64,000 bases of DNA from Candidatus Azambacteria bacterium (GTDB lineage Bacteria > Patescibacteriota > Minisyncoccia > GWC2-36-17 > WO2-46-25), in NCBI GenBank assembly GCA_016200965.1, contig JACQDT010000021.1, positions 86-64,085 of the forward strand, read 5' to 3'. Every line of letters begins with the position of its first letter. Position 1 is the first letter of the stretch. The position numbers were made by a program, and so were the translations under genes. Of this stretch, positions 69 through 42,505 are shown one piece after another. The notes below the pieces were generated by a model that did no database searches, had not been told where the DNA came from, and was given only the letters and a program-made list of their open reading frames with translations.

Positions 69-1040
69 ATGTACGATGTACTTGTGGTGGGAAGCGGCAT
101 CGCGTCCTTTTCAGCGGCGATGTTCGCGGCCAAAAAAAAGGTTACGGTGCAGGTGATTGCCGATGCAACCGGCGGTCAGGCGGCGCGGCAATGGGACATG
201 TACAGTTATCCCGGGTATTTGGGCAAAGACGGCGACCCGCGAACCAAGAGAGCGGAGCAGTCGTCATATGACGGCGCACAATTGGTGCAGAACATACGAA
301 AACAAGCCGAAGAGCTTGGCGTGGCTGTTGCGGAGGCAGAAGGCGGCATTCAAAAAATTTCTTTTCGGCAGGAGCATAATCACGAGATTTTTATATTGGA
401 AGACGCTGGGGGGAATGTGTATGAAGGAAATACGGTTATCATCGCGTCGGGGAAAAAACCGAGAAAGCTTGGTGTGCCGGGAGAAGACGAATTCATCGGA
501 AAAGGGGTTTCGTACGGAATGGAGGAAAGCGCTCAGGCATTTGAGGGAAAGTCGGTAGCCGTGGTGGGCGCGGGGAATGCTGGCCTTGACGTCGCGCTCG
601 CGCTTTCAAAATACGCCAAGAAGCTCTCTATCGTGGAAGTAGGAGATCGCGCAGGAGGCGACAAGTCAACGCAGGAAAAACTCGCGCAGAGTAAAAACGT
701 TGTATATATATTGAACGCGGCGGTGCAGAAAATTATCGGCAACGAGTGGGTTGGCGGCGTAGAATATATAAGCAAAACAACAGGAGAAACGAATCAGCTG
801 GAAGTGGATCAGGTATTCGTGACCACCGGAATGAATCCTAATTCTGATTTTCTCCGGGGATTTTGCGAGGTCAATCAGAGCGGCGAAGTGGTCATTAATC
901 CCCGCACGAATGCCACGAGCCATGTGGGAGTGTTCGCGGCGGGCGATGTAACCGATATTCCTGAAAAAGAGGCGATTATCGCGGCGGGCGAAGGCGCAAA
1001 AGCAGCCCTGCAATGCGTGAAGTGGCTTGTGGATAGGTAA
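69..1040 (+). CDS. Thioredoxin-reductase-like FAD/NAD(P) flavoprotein lacking the CxxC redox motif; carries an in-frame family-A repeat
   Basis: N-terminal GxGxxS FAD Rossmann and second GAGNAG NAD(P) Rossmann; colinear with the downstream TrxB, but the CxxC position reads YGMEESAQ; 14-aa insert DPRTKRAEQSSYDG relative to the paralog. Confidence 0.8.
   Translation: MYDVLVVGSGIASFSAAMFAAKKKVTVQVIADATGGQAARQWDMYSYPGYLGKDGDPRTKRAEQSSYDGAQLVQNIRKQAEELGVAVAEAEGGIQKISFRQEHNHEIFILEDAGGNVYEGNTVIIASGKKPRKLGVPGEDEFIGKGVSYGMEESAQAFEGKSVAVVGAGNAGLDVALALSKYAKKLSIVEVGDRAGGDKSTQEKLAQSKNVVYILNAAVQKIIGNEWVGGVEYISKTTGETNQLEVDQVFVTTGMNPNSDFLRGFCEVNQSGEVVINPRTNATSHVGVFAAGDVTDIPEKEAIIAAGEGAKAALQCVKWLVDR
234..275 (+). 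repeat. Family-A 42-nt repeat unit, in frame in the TrxR-like gene
   Basis: acccgcgaaccaagagagcggagcagtcgtcatatgacgg matches the units at 40473-40555, 42388-42471 and 14688-14712/14778-14798. Confidence 0.85.
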
Positions 1041-1992: not shown

Positions 1993-3003
1993 ATGATTAA
2001 AGTCGCCATTAACGGATTTGGGAGAATAGGAAGGATGTTTTTTCGCGTTGCTTTCGACAATCCGGAGATAGAAATAGTCGCCGTGAACGATCTGGGCGGT
2101 GCTGAAAATCTTGCGTATCTTTTGCAATATGATTCCGTCTATCGGAAATGGGAGAAGGAGGCGCGGACCGAAGGAGGAAATCTGGTCGTGGACGGCAAAA
2201 AAATAAAATTCACGCAGGAAAAAGACCCGACGAAACTGCCGTGGGGCACGCTTGGCGTTGATGTGGTGGTGGAATCCACGGGCGTGTTTGAAACGTTTGA
2301 GAAAGCCGCGGTGCATCTTCAGGCGGGTGCGAAGCGCGTGGTGATATCGGCGCCGGCAAAAGACGAGGATGGCACCGGCAAGACGGTGCTGTTGGGTATC
2401 AACGAGGAGGAATTGAAAACATGCAAAGTGAGTTCCAACGGCTCATGCACGACGAATTCCGTGCATCCGGTGATGCATATTTTAAATGAAGCCATCGGCA
2501 TAAAAAAGGCGATGTTGACCACCATTCATTCTTATACCGCATCGCAAAAGTTAGTGGACGCTCCCGATAAAGGCGACTGGCGCAGAGGACGCGCCGCGGC
2601 GGGCAATATTGTGCCGTCCACCACAGGCGCCGCGGTGTCAGTGACGCGGGCGGTGAAAGGTCTGAAAGGGCTTTTTGACGGCATTGCCCTGCGTGTACCG
2701 ACCATTTCGGGGTCGGTGTCCGACATCACCTTCCTCGCCAAGCGCCACACGAGCGTGGCGGAAATAAACGGCGCCATGAAGGCGGCGGCGAAGGACCCCC
2801 GATGGAGCGGTATTTTTAAAACCACCACCGATGAGATTGTGTCTTCTGACATCATCGGAGAATCGCACGCCTCAATCGTTGATTTGAAATTCACGAAGGT
2901 CGTGGACGGAGACCTGGTGAAGGTGCTCGCGTGGTACGACAATGAAATGGGGTACACGCATGCGCTGGTGCGTCACGTCATTAAAGCAGGCGCGCTTATA
3001 TAA
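1993..3003 (+). CDS. gap: Glyceraldehyde-3-phosphate dehydrogenase
   Basis: NGFGRIGR N-terminus, active-site SNGSCTTN, length 336 aa. Confidence 0.93.
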   Translation: MIKVAINGFGRIGRMFFRVAFDNPEIEIVAVNDLGGAENLAYLLQYDSVYRKWEKEARTEGGNLVVDGKKIKFTQEKDPTKLPWGTLGVDVVVESTGVFETFEKAAVHLQAGAKRVVISAPAKDEDGTGKTVLLGINEEELKTCKVSSNGSCTTNSVHPVMHILNEAIGIKKAMLTTIHSYTASQKLVDAPDKGDWRRGRAAAGNIVPSTTGAAVSVTRAVKGLKGLFDGIALRVPTISGSVSDITFLAKRHTSVAEINGAMKAAAKDPRWSGIFKTTTDEIVSSDIIGESHASIVDLKFTKVVDGDLVKVLAWYDNEMGYTHALVRHVIKAGALI

Positions 3004-3004
3004 G

Positions 3005-3274
3005 ATGTTCAACGATTACAATTTCTATATTTTTATTTTGCTTTTTTTATTTGGGGTTCTTCTTTTTGCGTTCAACGGTTTTATCGCGCACCCCTACTAT
3101 ATTGATGTGCTTGCGCTGATCCTTCTTGCGGTGCCAGTAATGGGTTTTGTGTATCTTTTGAAATTTCCCAACGCAAATACAACGCCCTTTTACATCCTTT
3201 TTTCGGCCCTGTTGGGCGCGTACACGCTCATATTTATCATAGTGAGGGTGTACGATATATTCAATCGCATATGA
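3005..3274 (+). CDS. Hypothetical small membrane protein
   Basis: ATG right after the gap stop; ~89 aa with three hydrophobic segments. Confidence 0.45.
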   Translation: MFNDYNFYIFILLFLFGVLLFAFNGFIAHPYYIDVLALILLAVPVMGFVYLLKFPNANTTPFYILFSALLGAYTLIFIIVRVYDIFNRI

Positions 3275-3985: not shown

Positions 3986-4735
3986 ATGTCCGAAATAATC
4001 CCTGCAATCATCGCGAAAGACAAAGAAGAATTGCAGCGCAAGCTCTCCTTGGTGGAGGGCCTTGTTTCGTGGGCGCAGATCGACGTGACCGACGGCGTAT
4101 TCACGCCGGCAACGACGTGGCCTTACGTCGACGGCGTAATTTCCAATTTCCAATTTCCAATTTCCAAACTTAATTTGGAAGTTCATCTTATGGTAAAAAA
4201 TCCTGAACATACGATTGCCAACTGGCTTGCTTCGCCCGTGAAACGCATTTTGCTTCATTACGAATCAACCGCGCCGGAGCGCATAGCGGAGTTAATCGGA
4301 AAAATTACCGCATCAGGCAAAGAAGCGGGGCTCGTTTTGAAATTAGAAACTCCTCTCTCTGTTCTTGACGATCTGTTTCACGCTTCACGCTCCCTGTTTG
4401 TCCAAGAGCGAAGCGATTGGCAACAAACAGCAGTCCAGCGAGGCCACAGGCAGAGTCGTGGCTTCACGCTTCACGTTGTACAACTCATGGGTATCGCCGA
4501 AATCGGCTACTACGGGCATGGATTTGAGCCGTACGCGCTTGACCGCATCAAGGCGTTGCGGGCAAAATATCCGGATGTTACAATAGAAGTAGATGGCGGA
4601 GTGAATCTAGAAAATGCTTCGGTGATTGCGCGGGCGGGAGCGGATAATCTTATTTCAGGAAGCGCGATTTTCAAAACTGACGACGTGAAGGGGGCGATTG
4701 ATGAGTTTAAATCTATCCTACGTTCTACTCCCTAA
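3986..4735 (+). CDS. rpe: Ribulose-phosphate 3-epimerase with an in-frame repeat-element insertion
   Basis: N-terminal IDVTDG...HLMV and C-terminal EVDGGVN...ISGSAIF Rpe motifs; ~32 extra aa (FHASRSLFVQERSDWQQTAVQRGHRQSRGFTLH) where homologs are colinear. Confidence 0.85.
   Translation: MSEIIPAIIAKDKEELQRKLSLVEGLVSWAQIDVTDGVFTPATTWPYVDGVISNFQFPISKLNLEVHLMVKNPEHTIANWLASPVKRILLHYESTAPERIAELIGKITASGKEAGLVLKLETPLSVLDDLFHASRSLFVQERSDWQQTAVQRGHRQSRGFTLHVVQLMGIAEIGYYGHGFEPYALDRIKALRAKYPDVTIEVDGGVNLENASVIARAGADNLISGSAIFKTDDVKGAIDEFKSILRSTP
4138..4165 (+). repeat. Heptanucleotide tandem repeat (AATTTCC)x4 inside the rpe coding sequence
   Basis: Four perfect 7-nt units read directly, encoding ISNFQFPISK; followed by the palindrome ttccaaacttaatttggaa. 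Confidence 0.9.
4377..4475 (+). repeat. Family-B repeat element (quasi-palindromic core ~4389-4463) flanked by direct repeats ttcacgcttcacg; 99 nt total, in frame in rpe
   Basis: Core ctccctgtttgtccaagagcgaagcgattggcaacaaacagcagtccagcgaggcc..gagtcgtggct recurs reverse-complemented at 14713-14777; ctgtttgtccaa/ttggcaacaaacag forms an imperfect hairpin. Confidence 0.85.
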
Positions 4736-13855: not shown

Positions 13856-14188
13856 GCCATATATACCGTAGACAAGGGGCTGGTGTCGTCAGACACCATA
13901 AGACCTCTCGAGGCACAGTTAGAAATTAGAAAATAGCGAGTAGCGAGTAATGTTGTTTTTTCTACTCGCTGCCACCTAAATTCTACTTTCTGTCCGTTCT
14001 ACGGCCTTTAAAAGGTCGTTTTTTAATTAGGTTTCTCTAAATTTTCAAGTCCGCAGGACGCAGGAAATTTATCAAAAACCAATTACCCCGCCCTTATTCT
14101 GCAATAGAATATTATGCGAAGGGCGGGGTGCTCACTGTGATGGTACAATTTCCATCGCTGGGAGCTTGTAAATTGTAATCACACTGGC

Positions 14189-14749
14189 ATGCCACTTACA
14201 AAAAAACAAAAAGGAGAAATCATAAATTCGGTTGTTGAAAAGTTTTCCAAGAGCAAAACCCTTATTTTTACCTACTTCACGAAAATAAGCGTGGAAAAAA
14301 TCAAAAAATTGCGAAAGAATTTGAAGATGAAAGGATCTGATTTTAAGGTGATAAAAAAGAGCTTGCTTGGGGTGGCGCTGGAAAAAGCGAAGATCAACAT
14401 TGAAGGGATTGACGTGGAAAAAGCGTTTGATGCGGTCGGCGTCGTATTCGGCGGAAAAGATCAGATTCAGATCGCAAGGGCTGTTTCTGTGTTCGCGCGC
14501 GCCAAGAGCAATGAGACGTTCAAGGTGCTTGGCGGGGCATTTGACGGACAATTTGCGGGAGTAGAAAAAATCACCGCATTGGCAAGAATGTCTTCACAGG
14601 AAGAATTGTATGCGCGGCTTTTGGGACAATTCAAGGCCCCTTTGTCGCGGCTCGCATATGTGTTGAAAGCGGTTTCAGAGAAACGGCAACCCGCGAACGC
14701 AGAGAGCGGAGCCACGACTCGGCAGGCCTCGCTGGACTGCTGTTTGTAA
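14189..14749 (+). CDS. rplJ: Ribosomal protein L10 with a C-terminus rewritten by a composite A/B repeat insertion
   Basis: L10 N-terminal ~165 aa conserved; last ~20 aa (RQPANAESGATTRQASLDCCL) are encoded by repeat sequence in a different frame. Confidence 0.85.
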   Translation: MPLTKKQKGEIINSVVEKFSKSKTLIFTYFTKISVEKIKKLRKNLKMKGSDFKVIKKSLLGVALEKAKINIEGIDVEKAFDAVGVVFGGKDQIQIARAVSVFARAKSNETFKVLGGAFDGQFAGVEKITALARMSSQEELYARLLGQFKAPLSRLAYVLKAVSEKRQPANAESGATTRQASLDCCL

Positions 14750-14798
14750 CCAATCGCTTTGCTCTTGGACAAACAGGGAGCAGTCGTCGCATGACGGC
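14688..14798 (+). repeat. Composite repeat: family-A unit (14688-14712, 14778-14798) interrupted by a reverse-complement family-B core (14713-14777)
   Basis: aacccgcgaacgcagagagcggagc | B(rc) | agcagtcgtcgcatgacggc; B insertion flanked by ggagc/ggagc. Confidence 0.85.
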
Positions 14799-14845
14799 AA
14801 TCAGTCTAAGTAGGGTTTGGTCGAATTATTAATTCTATTACAACT

Positions 14846-15217
14846 ATGGCGGATAAATTGAACAAATTGGTTGAGGAAATTGAGAAATTAAGCGCGATTG
14901 AGATAGTTGACTTGGTGAAGATACTTGAGGAGAAATTCGGAGTATCTGCGGCCGCTCCGGTTGCGGTTGCGGCAGGTGGGGGAGAAGTAGCTGCGGCGGA
15001 AGAGAAAACTTCGTTTTCTATTGAATTGAAAACGGCAGGCGAGCAGAAGATTCAGGTGATTAAAGTGCTAAGGGAGATAACAGGACTTGGCCTGAAGGAA
15101 GCAAAAGACATGGTAGATAAGGCTCCGAAAGTGGTGAAGGAGAACGTCTCCAAGGCGGACGCTGAAGAGATGAAGAAAAAGATTGAAGCAACAGGCGCGA
15201 CGGTAGAGATCAAGTAG
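14846..15217 (+). CDS. rplL: Ribosomal protein L7/L12
   Basis: Ala/Gly-rich hinge, C-terminal [15 protein letters not shown]...GATVEIK. Confidence 0.92.
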
Positions 15218-15231
15218 GGCTTTACTGCATT

Positions 15232-15270
15232 ACACACACCCCGGGTTCTCCTTGGGGTGTGTTATTTTTA
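15232..15270 (+). terminator. Rho-independent terminator after rplL
   Basis: acacacccc/ggggtgtgt stem followed by tattttta. Confidence 0.6.
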
Positions 15271-28648: not shown

Positions 28649-29227
28649 ATGATTTTATCCGACCGCGACATGAAGCAATATATCAAGGAAGGGAAGCTCA
28701 AATTCGAGCCCGTTTTGACGCCCGATCAGATCGGGCCGGCCTCCATTGACCTGAAACTTTCAAACGTGTTTAAGATTTTCAAGCCGGAACGGTATCTGAA
28801 TCTCGATGTGAAAAAAGGCATCCCCGACGACTACATGGAAAAGGTGGTGATAAAGGACCATGAGCCGTTCATTCTGCACCCGCATATGTTCGCGCTTGCC
28901 GCGACCAAAGAACGCATCACCGTTCCCGCCGACCTTTCGGTGAAGGTGGAAGGCAAAAGCACGCTCGCGCGCATGGGGCTTTTAGTGCATACGGCGGGGT
29001 TTGTGGATCCCGGCTTTGAAGGGGTCATTACCCTTGAGCTTTCCAACCAGTCAAATCTGCCCATCGCTATCTATCCGGGCATGTACGTCTGCCAGATCAA
29101 CTGCCAAATGCTTTCCAGCCCCGCGGAACGTCCGTACAACATACGGAAAAAATCCCTCTATTCAAACAAAGTGGCGGAGCCAGGCACCGCCAATACCGCG
29201 AATTTATTTGAGAAAAGCTCTCAATAA
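28649..29227 (+). CDS. dcd: dCTP deaminase
   Basis: N-terminal ILSDRD...GPASIDLKL and trimeric dUTPase-fold motifs (GFVDPGFEG); 192 aa. Confidence 0.88.
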   Translation: MILSDRDMKQYIKEGKLKFEPVLTPDQIGPASIDLKLSNVFKIFKPERYLNLDVKKGIPDDYMEKVVIKDHEPFILHPHMFALAATKERITVPADLSVKVEGKSTLARMGLLVHTAGFVDPGFEGVITLELSNQSNLPIAIYPGMYVCQINCQMLSSPAERPYNIRKKSLYSNKVAEPGTANTANLFEKSSQ

Positions 29228-29998
29228 ATTTTTAAAGAGATAGGCAACAGTCAGGGGGCCGACGCCACCCGGAACTGGCGTCACTATTTTTGCCTGTCTT
29301 GAAACGCGGGCGACATCAACGTCGCCTTTTATTTTTCCCTTGAAAAATCCCGCGCCCGCGTCAATGACGATAGCTCCTTTTTTCACTTTTTTGATAAGTC
29401 CCGGTTTGCCCACGGCGGAAATCACCGCATCGGCTCGCGCAGTCAACGCGGAAATATTTTTGGTCGTTTTGTCGGCAACCGCAACGTTTGTAAATCCCTT
29501 CCTCAATAAAAAGGTATGGAGCGGTTTTCCGATAAGGCGGCCGTGCCCGACGACAAGAATGGGCGTGTTCCTTTTGATTCTTCCGGCCTTGCCCAGCATA
29601 TGCCAAATCGCCTGCACGGATGGGGAAACGAAAGGCGAATCGCCGCGCAGATTATCCACGTCTTTTTCGGGCGCAATCGCCGAAAGTATTTTTTGGGTAT
29701 TGAATTTCGCAGGGAGAGGAAGCTGGACGATGATGCCGTTTACCGATTTATTTTTATTCAATTTTTTAATGAGTAGGATCACGCGCGTTTCTGACGCGCT
29801 CGCAGGAAGCTGATGCACCGCAAAATTGCATCTTACCGCGCGCGCGGCAAAACCTTTCCGCTTTACATAGTTCAATGAGGCGCGGTTGTTCCCTGCAAGC
29901 ACGACGGCAAGCGTCGGCTTTTGCCGCATCCGTACCGTATACTTCACAATGGCACGCTCAACTATTCGCGCAAGCGGTTTTCCGTATAAAAGCAACAT
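29204..29998 (-). CDS. folD: Bifunctional 5,10-methylene-THF dehydrogenase/cyclohydrolase
   Basis: YVKRK, GIIVQLPLP and PVPGGVGPLTVA motifs. Confidence 0.9.
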   Translation of the reverse strand: MLLLYGKPLARIVERAIVKYTVRMRQKPTLAVVLAGNNRASLNYVKRKGFAARAVRCNFAVHQLPASASETRVILLIKKLNKNKSVNGIIVQLPLPAKFNTQKILSAIAPEKDVDNLRGDSPFVSPSVQAIWHMLGKAGRIKRNTPILVVGHGRLIGKPLHTFLLRKGFTNVAVADKTTKNISALTARADAVISAVGKPGLIKKVKKGAIVIDAGAGFFKGKIKGDVDVARVSRQAKIVTPVPGGVGPLTVAYLFKNLLRAFLK

Positions 29999-40186: not shown

Positions 40187-42505
40187 TTATTCCGGATGCA
40201 CTTTCGCCGCGCGTTCGCGCAGATAGCGTTTCAACAGAGGATGACCCTCCAATGAAGGGTCTTCTTTCATAATGCGCAGAGCTTCATCGCGCGTCTCCTT
40301 GACCAGCGCGGCGTCCGCCAGCGATGCCATTGCAAGATCAGGAAGACCCCATTGGCGCGTTCCCAGGAAATCACCCGGGCCGCGCAGAGCCAAGTCCTTT
40401 TCCGCAAGCGCAAATCCACTGTGCGATTCAAGCAGGGCTTTCAAGCGGCGATTTTCCTCCGGTGCCGCACTGCCGTCATACGACGACTGCTCCGCTCTCT
40501 GCGTTCGCGGGTTGTCGTCATACGACGACTGCTCCGCTCTCTGCGTTCGCGGGTTGCCTGAAAAAAGCAGGCAGTATGACTGGTGCTCGCCTCTGCCGAC
40601 CCTGCCGCGAAACTGATGCAGTTGCGCAAGTCCGAACAGTTCCGCGCCTTCTACCATCATGACGGTCGCATTGGGCACATCAATACCCACTTCCACCACC
40701 GACGTAGACACGAGAATATCCGCGCCACCGTTTTTGAACTTTTTCATCGTTTCTTCTTTCTCCTTCGCTTTCATTTTTCCGTGAAGCATTACGACCCGCA
40801 GATCCGGAAACATCTCTGCCGATAGTTTTCTATACTCCTCTTTCACTGTTTTCACTTCCGCCGAAAGAAATTGCCGCACAGTAGCAGGGGACAACTCACT
40901 TCCAACTTCAATCCGAGGACAAATAACAAATATCTGTCTGCCTTCTTTTGCTTGCTTTCTGATAAATGCGTACGCCGCCTGACGATGTGCGGGAAGCACG
41001 ATCTTGGTAATGACCTTTTTTCTTTCTTTGGGCATCTCATCAAGCAGTGAAATATCAAGGTCTCCGTATAGCGTGAGGGCAAGCGTGCGCGGAATCGGGG
41101 TGGCAGTCATACTTAACAAATGGGGAGCCGCACCAACGCGGCTTGTTTTTACAAGTGCCGCGCGTTGTTTGACGCCGAAGCGATGCTGTTCGTCCAGCAC
41201 CACAAGCCCTAATTTGCGAAATACGCAATTTTTTGAGATAAGCGCGTGCGTGCCCACGACCACCGGCAACGCGCCTTGGGCAATCATCTGTATAACATCC
41301 TGTTTTTTCATTTTCCTGTCCGCGCGCAATTCTCCGTCGTGGACGATCGCCTGAGCGCCCGTCAGCAATCCCACGTCACATCCGAACAATGCAAAGAACT
41401 GTGCAAATACTGAAAAATGCTGAAGCGCGAGCACCTCGGTGGGCGCCATCAGGGCGATCTGCCATCCGTTTCGAGCGGCATTTAAAGCGGCAATCGCGGC
41501 GACCACCGTTTTTCCCGAGCCGACTTCGCCTTGCAACAGACGGTTCATCGGGAACGGTTTTTGCATATCTTTTAATATTTCCCATGCCGCGCGGCGCTGG
41601 GCATCCGTCAGCCGGAAGGGGAGTAGGGACACGAATCGTTTCACCGCTTCAAGGTCAAGCGCAAGAGGGGGCGCGGATTCTTTTTTGACGGCGTTCTTCG
41701 CTTCCAACGCCAAAAGGTGGAGGAAAAATAATTCTTCAAACGCAAGGCGTTTTCTCGCGCGCGCGCTCTCTTCTTTTGTGCGCGGAAAATGGATTTCCCT
41801 CAATGCCGCCCCCAACGCAGGAAGCCGATGGCGGCGCAGAGTGTCTTGCGGAAGCGGATCAGTGATATGTGAAATGAACGGCAGGGCGTTTTTCATCAGA
41901 TATCTCAACCAACGGGAAGTAATGCCTGCCGTTTCGCGATACACCGGAACCAGGCGGCCGGTGTGCGTCGCGACACCGTCTTTCGCGACGAATTCATACG
42001 CTGGATTTTGAAGTACCAGCGATGTTTTGTCAGCTGTTATTTTCCCCGAAAGATTCACCATCCTGCCGACACGCAAATTTTTTGTGAGGAACGGCTGGTT
42101 GAACCACACCGCGCGCATGCTTCCGGTCCCGTCGGAAATCACCGCTTCGGTAAGATGCATGCGTCTTTTCCATGTGTGCGCGCTTTCCACCCGCTCCAAT
42201 TTTCCGGAGATGGTCGCGACGGCGCCCGCTTTCACGTCCGCTATGGACACTTTTTTGGAAAAATCATCGTAGCGGAACGGCACGTGCATGAGCAGATCGT
42301 ACACCGTACGGATGCCGAGCGCGGCGAGCGGCTTGATGATTGTGGCACTTGCTCCTTTTAATTTTTCAATAGGGGAGAGAAGCGATGTGTCGTCATACGA
42401 CGACTGCTCCGCTCTCGGGGTTCGCGGGTTGCCGTCATACGACGACTGCTCCGCTCTCTGGGTTCGCGGGTTGCCGTCTTTCAGATGAAGAGATGATTTT
42501 AACAT
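40187..42505 (-). CDS. recG: ATP-dependent DNA helicase RecG carrying tandem family-A repeat dimers near both termini
   Basis: GEVGSGKT Walker A, DEQHRFG motif II and helicase C domain; inserts GNPRTQRAEQSSYDGNPRTPRAEQSSYDD (N-term) and GNPRTQRAEQSSYDDNPRTQRAEQSSYDG (C-term, just before the conserved ..LAEKDLALRGPGD); start taken at MLKSS. Confidence 0.88.
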   Translation of the reverse strand: MLKSSLHLKDGNPRTQRAEQSSYDGNPRTPRAEQSSYDDTSLLSPIEKLKGASATIIKPLAALGIRTVYDLLMHVPFRYDDFSKKVSIADVKAGAVATISGKLERVESAHTWKRRMHLTEAVISDGTGSMRAVWFNQPFLTKNLRVGRMVNLSGKITADKTSLVLQNPAYEFVAKDGVATHTGRLVPVYRETAGITSRWLRYLMKNALPFISHITDPLPQDTLRRHRLPALGAALREIHFPRTKEESARARKRLAFEELFFLHLLALEAKNAVKKESAPPLALDLEAVKRFVSLLPFRLTDAQRRAAWEILKDMQKPFPMNRLLQGEVGSGKTVVAAIAALNAARNGWQIALMAPTEVLALQHFSVFAQFFALFGCDVGLLTGAQAIVHDGELRADRKMKKQDVIQMIAQGALPVVVGTHALISKNCVFRKLGLVVLDEQHRFGVKQRAALVKTSRVGAAPHLLSMTATPIPRTLALTLYGDLDISLLDEMPKERKKVITKIVLPAHRQAAYAFIRKQAKEGRQIFVICPRIEVGSELSPATVRQFLSAEVKTVKEEYRKLSAEMFPDLRVVMLHGKMKAKEKEETMKKFKNGGADILVSTSVVEVGIDVPNATVMMVEGAELFGLAQLHQFRGRVGRGEHQSYCLLFSGNPRTQRAEQSSYDDNPRTQRAEQSSYDGSAAPEENRRLKALLESHSGFALAEKDLALRGPGDFLGTRQWGLPDLAMASLADAALVKETRDEALRIMKEDPSLEGHPLLKRYLRERAAKVHPE
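40473..40555 (-). repeat. Family-A repeat, tandem dimer (2 x 42 nt), in frame in the recG 3' region
   Basis: Two units ccgtcatacgacgactgctccgctctctgcgttcgcgggtt read directly. Confidence 0.9.
42388..42471 (-). repeat. Family-A repeat, tandem dimer (2 x 42 nt), in frame in the recG 5' region
   Basis: Two units gtcgtcatacgacgactgctccgctctc(g/t)gggttcgcgggtt read directly. Confidence 0.9.

Follow-up and report, generated by a model that had tools for sequence, protein, structure and literature searches.

The palindromic elements of Rickettsia (RPEs) are short palindromic repeats, about 100-150 bp long and without coding capacity of their own, that are found in frame in many unrelated housekeeping genes at positions compatible with the fold and function of the host protein, and each RPE family is read as one conserved peptide (PMC10969869). 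The MITEs of bacteria (miniature inverted-repeat transposable elements), such as Correia, ERIC, Nezha, and Chunjie, are likewise small, non-autonomous, and present in multiple copies, and they occasionally form in-frame fusions with open reading frames (ORFs) (PMC10969869). The present analysis concerns two families of short structured repeats, designated A and B, in a 64,000-nucleotide stretch of a Candidatus Azambacteria bacterium genome (assembly GCA_016200965.1, contig JACQDT010000021.1, positions 86 to 64,085, referred to as the window), and in particular the 3' end of rplJ, the gene for ribosomal protein L10, where an A unit is interrupted by a B unit to give a composite, A[B]. We consider it probable that A and B are selfish structured mini-elements that insert site-specifically, are nested at rplJ, and are tolerated within proteins. 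Other described systems also bear on this interpretation. Repetitive extragenic palindromic (REP) sequences and bacterial interspersed mosaic elements (BIMEs) of enterobacteria and pseudomonads are built from imperfectly palindromic units of 20-40 nt and form mosaics of motif types, and their movement, in the form of single-strand hairpins, is attributed to an HUH/Y1 enzyme; REPs lie outside genes, mostly as inverted pairs, and have a conserved 5' GTAG. IS200/IS605 insertion sequences and their non-autonomous derivatives, the palindrome-associated transposable elements (PATEs), insert strand-specifically 3' of a specific tetra- or pentanucleotide, with subterminal hairpins and with neither target duplication nor terminal inverted repeats. 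The byp elements and the translational hop of T4 gene 60 involve short inserts in ORFs that have identical take-off and landing motifs and a hairpin.

The 3' end of rplJ and the sequence that follows it are organized in this way (window positions):

14189-14749, plus strand: rplJ, ribosomal protein L10 (uL10), 186 residues, the last 19 codons formed by the repeat composite (ORF list, Pfam, orthologue alignment, PDB uL10)
14685-14712, plus strand: left part of the family-A unit, GGC followed by hairpin H1 (CCGC-loop-GCGG) and AGC, read in frame 3 as (Q)PANAESG
14713-14781, plus strand: family-B unit, 69 nt, with hairpins h1 and h2 and the constant 3' end GGGAGC, encoding ATTRQASLDCCL and a stop
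14747-14749, plus strand: current L10 stop codon, TAA, within the B hairpin region
14782-14798, plus strand: right part of the family-A unit, hairpin H2 (GTCGTC-GCAT-GACGGC), now untranslated
14801-14809, plus strand: remnant of the original end of rplJ, tca gtc TAA (..SV*), which falls in the rplJ frame when the 111-nt composite (42 + 69) is taken out
14846-15217, plus strand: rplL (L7/L12), the operon gene downstream of rplJ (ORF list, Pfam)
15234-15262: operon terminator, 3' of rplL

The end of the gene reads ...gagaaac GGCAACCCGCGAACGCAGAGAGCGGAGC / CACGACTCGGCAGGCCTCGCTGGACTGCTGTTTGTAACCAATCGCTTTGCTCTTGGACAAACAGGGAGC / AGTCGTCGCATGACGGC aatcagtctaag, corresponding to the left part of A, B, the right part of A, and the downstream sequence, with AGTCGTCGCATGACGGC followed by aa tca gtc taa g, and the protein encoded by the ORF ends ...EKRQPANAESGATTRQASLDCCL. 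The A unit amounts to 45 nt in all and is interrupted by B after GCGGAGC. The rplJ product, which is 100% identical to the NCBI 50S ribosomal protein L10 of 'Candidatus Azambacteria bacterium', has the two features that identify a uL10 protein, a Pfam Ribosomal_L10 domain (1.1e-14) and a C-terminal L7/L12-binding helix (residues 152-166 in an AlphaFold2 model). A first-pass annotation had described a family-A unit split by family B at this position, and the exact coordinates (14685-14712, 14713-14781, and 14782-14798) bear this out, as they do its observations that A is read here in a frame unlike that of the other window copies (PANAESGA, the +2 frame, as opposed to (G/D)NPRTQRAEQSSYD elsewhere) and that the L10 ORF ends inside the composite, the TAA lying within B. 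B had also been described as flanked by ggagc on both sides; both motifs are present, at 14708-14712 and 14777-14781, but the right-hand one is B's own constant 3' end and the pair does not represent a target-site duplication.

Seventeen L10 homologues, most of them 162-172 residues long and 32-71% identical to the window protein where they align, match it as far as ...LKAVSEKRQ (residue 167), and the orthologues stop 0-5 residues beyond the position at which A starts, those of 166-172 residues ending at the A boundary. Solved uL10 structures place the C-terminal boundary as the orthologues do, with PDB matches covering query residues 8-168; in Bacillus subtilis uL10 (7o5b_p, 166 residues), residues 8-163 align with residues 8-168 of the query. 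At the closest orthologous locus (L051), rplJ ends gaa aag aaa cag ata atc tct taa and the site is empty, and excision of the composite from the window gene in silico joins gag aaa cgg caa to tca gtc taa, giving ...EK(R)QSV*. The alignment of the C terminus with orthologues, which the first-pass annotation had called for, therefore shows that about 2 native residues have given way to 19 others (PANAESGATTRQASLDCCL), which lengthens the protein by about 17. Because the orthologues end at or after the start of A, by 0-5 codons, and the relic of the native end sits just downstream (14801-14809), the native stop does not lie upstream of 14688 and the composite is not purely 3'-untranslated sequence. 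The C-terminal peptides that would distinguish the two forms are ...QPANAESGATTR or QASLDCCL for the present protein and ...EKRQSV for the native one.

An AlphaFold2 model based on the orthologue alignment (mean predicted local distance difference test score, pLDDT, of 78) keeps the last helix, residues 152-166, and assigns residues 167-186 a pLDDT below 50 and no secondary structure. The suggestion that the C-terminal helix that binds L7/L12 may have been altered is not supported by these results, as homology with the 17 orthologues and the uL10 structures reaches about residue 167 and the modeled helix is intact; the alignment and the model indicate that the helix is not rewritten and that a tail predicted to be disordered is appended after it. 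The tail is a by-product, tolerated because it follows the last functional helix, and it is most likely neutral or slightly deleterious as opposed to adaptive. The proposal that the composite has been kept between rplJ and rplL for its usefulness, whether through an RNA structure that adjusts the L10:L12 expression ratio or the stability of the mRNA or through a tail active in the ribosomal stalk, is one that we regard as quite unlikely. It is true that the composite lies in the co-transcribed rplJ-rplL spacer and has moved the rplJ stop to 96 nt before the rplL start, that its hairpins are structurally constrained, and that orthologous composites are about 96% conserved, compared with 81-84% for their flanks. 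However, a C-terminal extension of this kind is absent from all 17 L10 homologues, and the predicted disordered tail is simply what results when a repeat that also occurs in unrelated genes is read out of frame. An intrinsic terminator within the composite was rejected, since there is only a chance-level match there and the real terminator follows rplL; the composite consequently belongs to the rplJL transcript, and its lack of a convincing terminator also counts against a useful role. Finally, the structural constraint is equal in every context, which points to the propagation of the element itself and not to the rplJ locus. A, too, is almost unchanged between lineages with L10 proteins that differ by 30-50%. 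Concerted evolution or horizontal spread could account for the conservation of A and of the composites, or A may derive from a conserved RNA gene, as considered below.

Both families recur elsewhere in the window, in genes that are unrelated to rplJ:

231-275, plus strand: solo A unit within a thioredoxin-reductase-like gene (69-1040), read in frame (KDGDPRTKRAEQSSYDG); the paralogue next to it (1027-1989) is without A
40472-40558, minus strand: tandem of two A units between the Helicase_C and RecG_dom3_C parts of RecG, in frame
42389-42475, minus strand: two tandem A units, in frame, at the RecG N terminus before the wedge domain
4389-4460, minus strand: 72-nt solo B unit inside ribulose-phosphate 3-epimerase (rpe, 3986-4735), antisense to this gene and adding 24 residues in frame

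A consists of 42 nt and a shared GGC, and folds into two hairpins, H1 (CCGC/GCGG, with a loop that is hypervariable at positions 15-16) and H2 (GTCRYC-GTAT-GAYGGC). A 23-mer from its left half has 6 matches in the window at no more than 3 mismatches, against 0.00 expected from shuffled sequences. The insertions add 15 residues to the thioredoxin-reductase-like protein and twice 14 residues at each of the two places in RecG. In 41 distinct copies 93.7% of the alignment cells are paired, values that are reached by 0 of 500 shuffles and that fall off in slid controls, and three pairs show compensatory change: 8-24 (C-G to U-A), 32-43 (C-G to G-C or U-A), and 33-42 (G-C to A-U, in 9 copies). B is 69-72 nt long and has a small hairpin, h1, with a variable loop, a long hairpin, h2 (CTGTTTGT..CCAA/TTGG..ACAAACAG), with two compensatory pairs, and the constant 3' end GGGAGC. 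The B unit in rplJ matches 4389-4445 in reverse complement (95% over 57 nt), and the one in rpe breaks the Pfam match of its host into two stretches.

As further observations on the A copies of the window, the two thioredoxin-reductase-like ORFs, of which only the first contains A, overlap by 14 nt, and all the copies are on the G-rich strand in the same orientation as their host genes. The GC skew of the window is positive as far as about 24 kb, lies near zero between 24 and 40 kb, and turns negative past about 40 kb. The cumulative skew has its peak at 22-40 kb, and a replication terminus (or origin) probably falls within the window.

When one genome from each GTDB species was scanned for the left half of A, 50 loci were obtained. 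Inspection of the flanks showed that 33 of these carry the full A, all in metagenome-assembled genomes (MAGs) of Patescibacteria type and 19 of them from a single one, CAYIVQ01, which also has the highest load seen (27 pattern matches in 142 kb of sampled loci); the other 17 match the core only, come from high-GC genomes, and look like chance hits. When chance hits were removed and only ORFs of at least 300 nt considered, 29 of 40 A copies encoded the hydrophilic GNPRTQRAEQSSYD in the sense frame, even though A is free of stops in five of its six frames. The copies are concentrated near protein termini; L008 is a further example, besides rplJ, of an A unit at the 3' end of a gene in frame 3, and there the TGA within A serves as the stop. 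An exhaustive HMMER search with two tandem units of the A peptide found 6 representatives among 1.84 billion proteins, and a word-indexed search with three tandem units found 1 match; these searches undercount the peptide, as a single 15-residue unit falls below significance, but the 6 representatives indicate that the family is narrow and apparently undescribed.

A scan of JGI and ENA metagenome contigs for the core of B gave 28 loci, and with the window a total of 35 B copies is available. Fifteen of these lie inside A, with 12 distinct left flanks. Other copies stand alone, follow GGGAGC in a third palindromic repeat, C, or form a head-to-tail B-B tandem (L060). The search for more nested copies that the first-pass annotation had proposed thus yielded 15 composites in related assemblies, and 15 of 15 share both the junctions, GCGGAGC/CACGACTC and CAGGGAGC/AGTCG, and the orientation of B, with the same junction assembled independently in NCBI, ENA, and JGI data. 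B is 72 nt long (69 at rplJ) in coding A units and 70-71 nt elsewhere.

Several side observations relate to these B settings. Family C has the form TGTCATTCTGAGGGAGC...CGACCGAAGAATCTCAGAGATCC...CCTTCAGGATGACA, with B directly after its GGGAGC, and is found at L056 (about 2960-3110), L061, L063, L065, L068, L072, and L076. At L062 (minus strand, about 815-1000 on the plus strand) there is a three-level nest, A[B[B']], in which a 68-nt B-like element occupies the loop of B; L071 shares the right flank of this locus but is without B', and the left flanks of the two diverge, so that the flanks agree on one side only. At L057 (9100-9230), B contains a 24-nt insert.

Comparison of the flanks suggests an insertion grammar. 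The 5 nt to the left of B are GGAGC in 12 of 19 distinct contexts and mostly xxAGC in the others (GTAGC, TGAGC, GAAGC, CGAGC), whereas the right end of B is always GGGAG(C/T), whatever the flank; GTAGC, TGAGC, GAAGC, CGAGC, and ATTGT all stand opposite the constant GGGAGC. Since the left flank and the end of B do not co-vary, there is no target-site duplication for B. Positions -3, -2, and -1 relative to A are G, G, and C in 39, 42, and 53 of 55 copies, respectively, and the unit itself ends in GGC; here also the left and right triplets do not co-vary, with TTC, CGC, or GAC at the left and GGC at the right end. No target-site duplication of variable flanking sequence was found at the A or B copies compared, and terminal inverted repeats are absent, as the ends of A (GGCAACCCGCG... 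and ...CGTATGACGGC) and of B (CACGACTCGGC... and ...ACAAACAGGGAGC) are not reverse complements. By these sequence comparisons, A and B each sit 3' of a short motif equal to their own 3' end, GGC for A and (G)GAGC for B. The rule would explain the A-A and B-B tandems, because a resident copy is an ideal target, and it would lead B to enter A at one base and in one orientation and to become nested in other repeats that contain GGGAGC. A units account for only 7 of the window's 139 GGAGC sites, yet about 45% of the sampled B copies are found in A. Such a preference calls for something more, be it extra recognition, the neutrality of entering an insert that is already tolerated, or co-propagation of A[B].

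The last of these possibilities deserves serious consideration and we regard it as plausible, if short of probable: a ready-made A[B] of about 114-117 nt may be the propagating unit and may have inserted whole, in one event, in the last codons of rplJ. The invariance of the junctions in all 15 composites is what such a unit would produce, and two separate sites in folD orthologues both hold the full composite. In addition, composites outnumber solo A units by 9:1 in 160 kb of B-selected metagenome loci, as opposed to 2:32 in CAYIVQ01, which suggests lineage-specific 'master' forms. On the other hand, B also occurs outside A with the same left-flank rule (in rpe, in family C, and in the B-B tandem), and one B subtype is found in both A and family C in the same samples. 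Furthermore, the A loops vary no less in composites than in solo units (GCA, ATA, ACA, AGA, CCG, GAA), and solo A units predominate in the window.

Relatives provide both empty and filled sites. One of them, CAYIVQ01, has 54-84% protein identity and synteny with the window. (This MAG, ERP119705_co8_44, represented by L004-L050, is labeled 'uncultured Candidatus Saccharibacteria', a label that is probably wrong.) Empty sites were found for rplJ (L051) and for rpe (L045, in CAYIVQ01), while folD is empty in the window. The rpe of L045 is without exactly the 24 residues encoded by B, and the insertion site has four copies of a 7-nt repeat in both L045 and the window; because the number of repeats is the same in the two species, the window rpe has gained 72 nt without duplication. 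This native tandem repeat, (GTGAAGC)x4 on the minus strand at window positions 4375-4395 and 4461-4475 and (CGAGTAG)x4 at 6870-6900 of L045, is itself odd in having a frame-breaking period inside an ORF and in being conserved in position but not in sequence. The window folD orthologue (29210-29998, minus strand) is empty, but folD in L054 contains a full A[B] in the usual frame, S1 (SGNPRTQRAEPRLGKSLAGLLFVSQSLCSWTNREQSSYDG), and folD in L077 contains A[B] at a different position and in a different frame (ATREHRERSHDSAKASLDCCLLANRFALGQTGSSRRMT). The insertions arose independently. The recurrent junction and the empty sites in relatives together strengthen the earlier proposal that the elements are mobile and target each other.

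The possibility that the nest at rplJ is an artefact, in which an assembler threaded through a repeat and either created the nest or misjoined its flanks, must be considered in this connection. In four metagenome contigs (L064, L074, L066, and L075), two left flanks and two right flanks, 97-99.8% identical, surround one A[B] in each of the four possible pairings; these are either repeat-induced assembly chimeras or the result of real recombination between copies, and because every combination is represented, A and B repeats probably do cause chimeric joins. Such an origin is nevertheless very unlikely for rplJ, where both flanks (the body of rplJ, the relic end, and rplL) are syntenic and match the orthologous locus and where the composite, at 114 nt, is below a typical read length. 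Also, the B unit in rplJ has private differences from the other B in the window (69 as opposed to 72 nt, 95% identity), and the junction has been obtained in three independent sets of assemblies.

The explanation that we favor is that A and B are selfish mobile DNA, inserted in a strand- and site-specific manner without target duplication. The conserved hairpins would act as recognition structures, as in the single-strand HUH/Y1 systems (IS200/IS605, and REP with its associated tyrosine transposase, RAYT); selection on the host would retain only copies whose length, a multiple of 3 nt, keeps the frame and whose product is a hydrophilic loop that the protein tolerates, whereas gene ends such as the rplJ stop region would accept any frame. 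At rplJ, A is located within the last 2-3 codons and B inside A, directly 3' of GCGGAGC; the reading frame leaves an intact L10 body, enters A in a frame unused elsewhere in the window, continues into B, and ends at TAA.

It should be recognized that several observations weigh against this explanation. A crude regular-expression screen for HUH/Y motifs in 613 ORFs (about 500 kb), which is a weak test, gave 0 candidates for a transposase or recombinase, and the genes that flank the repeats are unrelated housekeeping genes. The folding energies of single copies (z-scores) are not significantly below those of shuffled sequences, and for this reason the structural claim for A and B rests on covariation. 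The identity of target and own 3' end would equally come from microhomology-guided recombination or, for the tandems, from slippage, and the enrichment of B in A is equally explained by neutral insertion into a tolerated insert or by the propagation of A[B] as a whole. In addition, A is highly conserved across distant Parcubacteria, including at a single-copy non-coding locus, which is unusual for purely selfish DNA.

This locus was found in five distant Parcubacteria genomes (Giovannoni-, Zambryski-, and Liptonbacteria, and two Patescibacteria bins), each of which contains only one exact A, a perfect unit:

L013, 4003-4259, minus strand: A-bearing non-coding locus
L018, 2895-3151, plus strand: A-bearing non-coding locus
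L019, 1247-1503, plus strand: A-bearing non-coding locus
L026, 6051-6307, minus strand: A-bearing non-coding locus
L040, 4715-4971, plus strand: A-bearing non-coding locus

The conserved order is ...GTGCAGTATTCTTGAATTAGTCCGAAC, a variable hairpin, CCCCCCGCGAAAATTCGGCAAC-A-GGAAAGGCGGCG, a variable hairpin, and GCCGCACCGCTGACAATTT..., followed by more hairpins. The locus extends over about 150-400 nt, as judged by eye, with A as its best-conserved segment and hairpin insertions of variable length, and its neighbors are unrelated genes, with tRNA genes often close by. Comparison of the locus, A, and B with Rfam gave only tRNAs at the gathering threshold and only noise at E values up to 10; the locus itself matched neither an Rfam family nor a tRNA or tmRNA. 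The locus may be an undescribed structured RNA and a possible source of A. It could be imagined that A was copied from such a conserved Parcubacteria RNA gene and dispersed into dozens of ORFs in Azambacteria-like lineages, possibly through an RNA or single-strand intermediate; we consider this unlikely, but if it is true, A would be a bacterial analogue of the short interspersed elements that derive from RNA genes, tolerated in proteins, and B would be a second element that homes to A.

Whether the inserts are translated at all bears on a further explanation, in which the ribosome would bypass them, or the RNA would be excised, with the matching motifs (cGGCAA...cGGCAA, GGC...GGC, or GAGC...GAGC) as take-off and landing sites, and L10 would retain its native end. 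In each copy one short motif does stand both ahead of the element and at its very end, and there are stable hairpins as well, in formal likeness to T4 gene 60 and the mitochondrial byp elements. But the copies in coding sequence are multiples of 3 nt, stop-free, and strongly biased to one frame, whereas non-coding B copies are 70-71 nt long; since selection of this kind is expected only on translated sequence, the inserts appear to be translated. The putative take-off codon is also not followed by a stop or a rare codon, and of the explanations considered here we find bypassing the least probable.

The surroundings of rplJ have some features of their own. No rplK-rplA pair lies ahead of the gene, and its upstream neighbors are instead mreB and an ORF of glycosyltransferase-like type (window 13960-14190). 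There is a terminator-like hairpin upstream of rplJ (14001-14019) and a GC-rich hairpin, ccccgccc...gggcgggg, in its leader (14087-14131), and a search of Rfam found no L10 leader upstream of the gene.

The effect on L10 itself is small, amounting to a predicted disordered tail past an intact stalk helix, and the wider interest lies in the hosts. Genomes of the Candidate Phyla Radiation (CPR)/Patescibacteria are very small and streamlined and are regarded as poor in mobile DNA, but they host families of structured elements of 42-72 nt that are written as in-frame peptides into essential proteins (L10, RecG, FolD, Rpe, and the thioredoxin-reductase-like protein). On the practical side, A and B give proteins seemingly novel features, displace stop codons, and appear to lead to chimeric joins when metagenomes are assembled.

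Candidate identities other than those compared below were considered and rejected. An origin of A from tmRNA, suggested by its frame 3 peptide, ANAESGAVVV*, is not supported by ARAGORN, which was negative for five loci and the window, or by Rfam, which had no match even at E values up to 10; moreover, L040 has TGG in place of the stop, and the end of the peptide is unlike the ...LAA of tags. There is no exact match to A, B, or the non-coding locus in IMG/VR to indicate a phage origin, the variable sites of A are not adenine-specific as in the template and variable repeats of diversity-generating retroelements, and on inspection the ends do not fit the RYYYAAC/GTTRRRY of integron attC sites. 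Full-text literature searches found no description of such repeats in CPR/Patescibacteria.

Among the known systems, classical MITEs can be excluded, as these are defined by terminal inverted repeats and target-site duplications, and A and B are without both. The byp elements differ in that the coding copies of A and B hold the frame, avoid stops, and are evidently translated. The insertion logic of A and B resembles, by analogy, that of the single-strand elements REP/BIME or IS200/IS605. With REP/BIME they share a structure conserved through compensatory changes and the formation of mosaics (A[B], C[B], and A[B[B']]), but they are mostly intragenic, form direct tandems or nests of a single orientation, and have no GTAG, and the crude motif screen of 613 ORFs gave no RAYT candidate. 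The first-pass annotation had likened the nest to insertion sequences that target REP/BIME sequences; this stands as an analogy only, since A and B are without a transposase, terminal inverted repeats, and target duplication. The likeness to IS200/IS605 lies in the location of B 3' of (G)GAGC and of A 3' of GGC, the lack of target duplication, and the single orientation of B in A; the differences are that no TnpA or TnpB was seen with A or B, that they are far smaller than known PATEs, and that the target motif equals their own 3' end.

In relation to proteins, A and B work like the RPEs, with A in frame in the thioredoxin-reductase-like protein and twice in RecG, B in Rpe, A[B] in FolD, and 29 of 40 A copies in one frame. 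They differ from RPEs in being found in 'Ca. Azambacteria' or other Patescibacteria, in having unrelated sequences and lengths of 42-45 and 69-72 nt, and in forming head-to-tail tandems, nesting at one fixed base, and being preceded by a defined motif of 3-5 nt. A and B therefore appear to be a new family of site-specific repeats and a second, independent case, after Rickettsia, of selfish DNA inside protein-coding genes, with a clearer insertion grammar that could reveal the mechanism.

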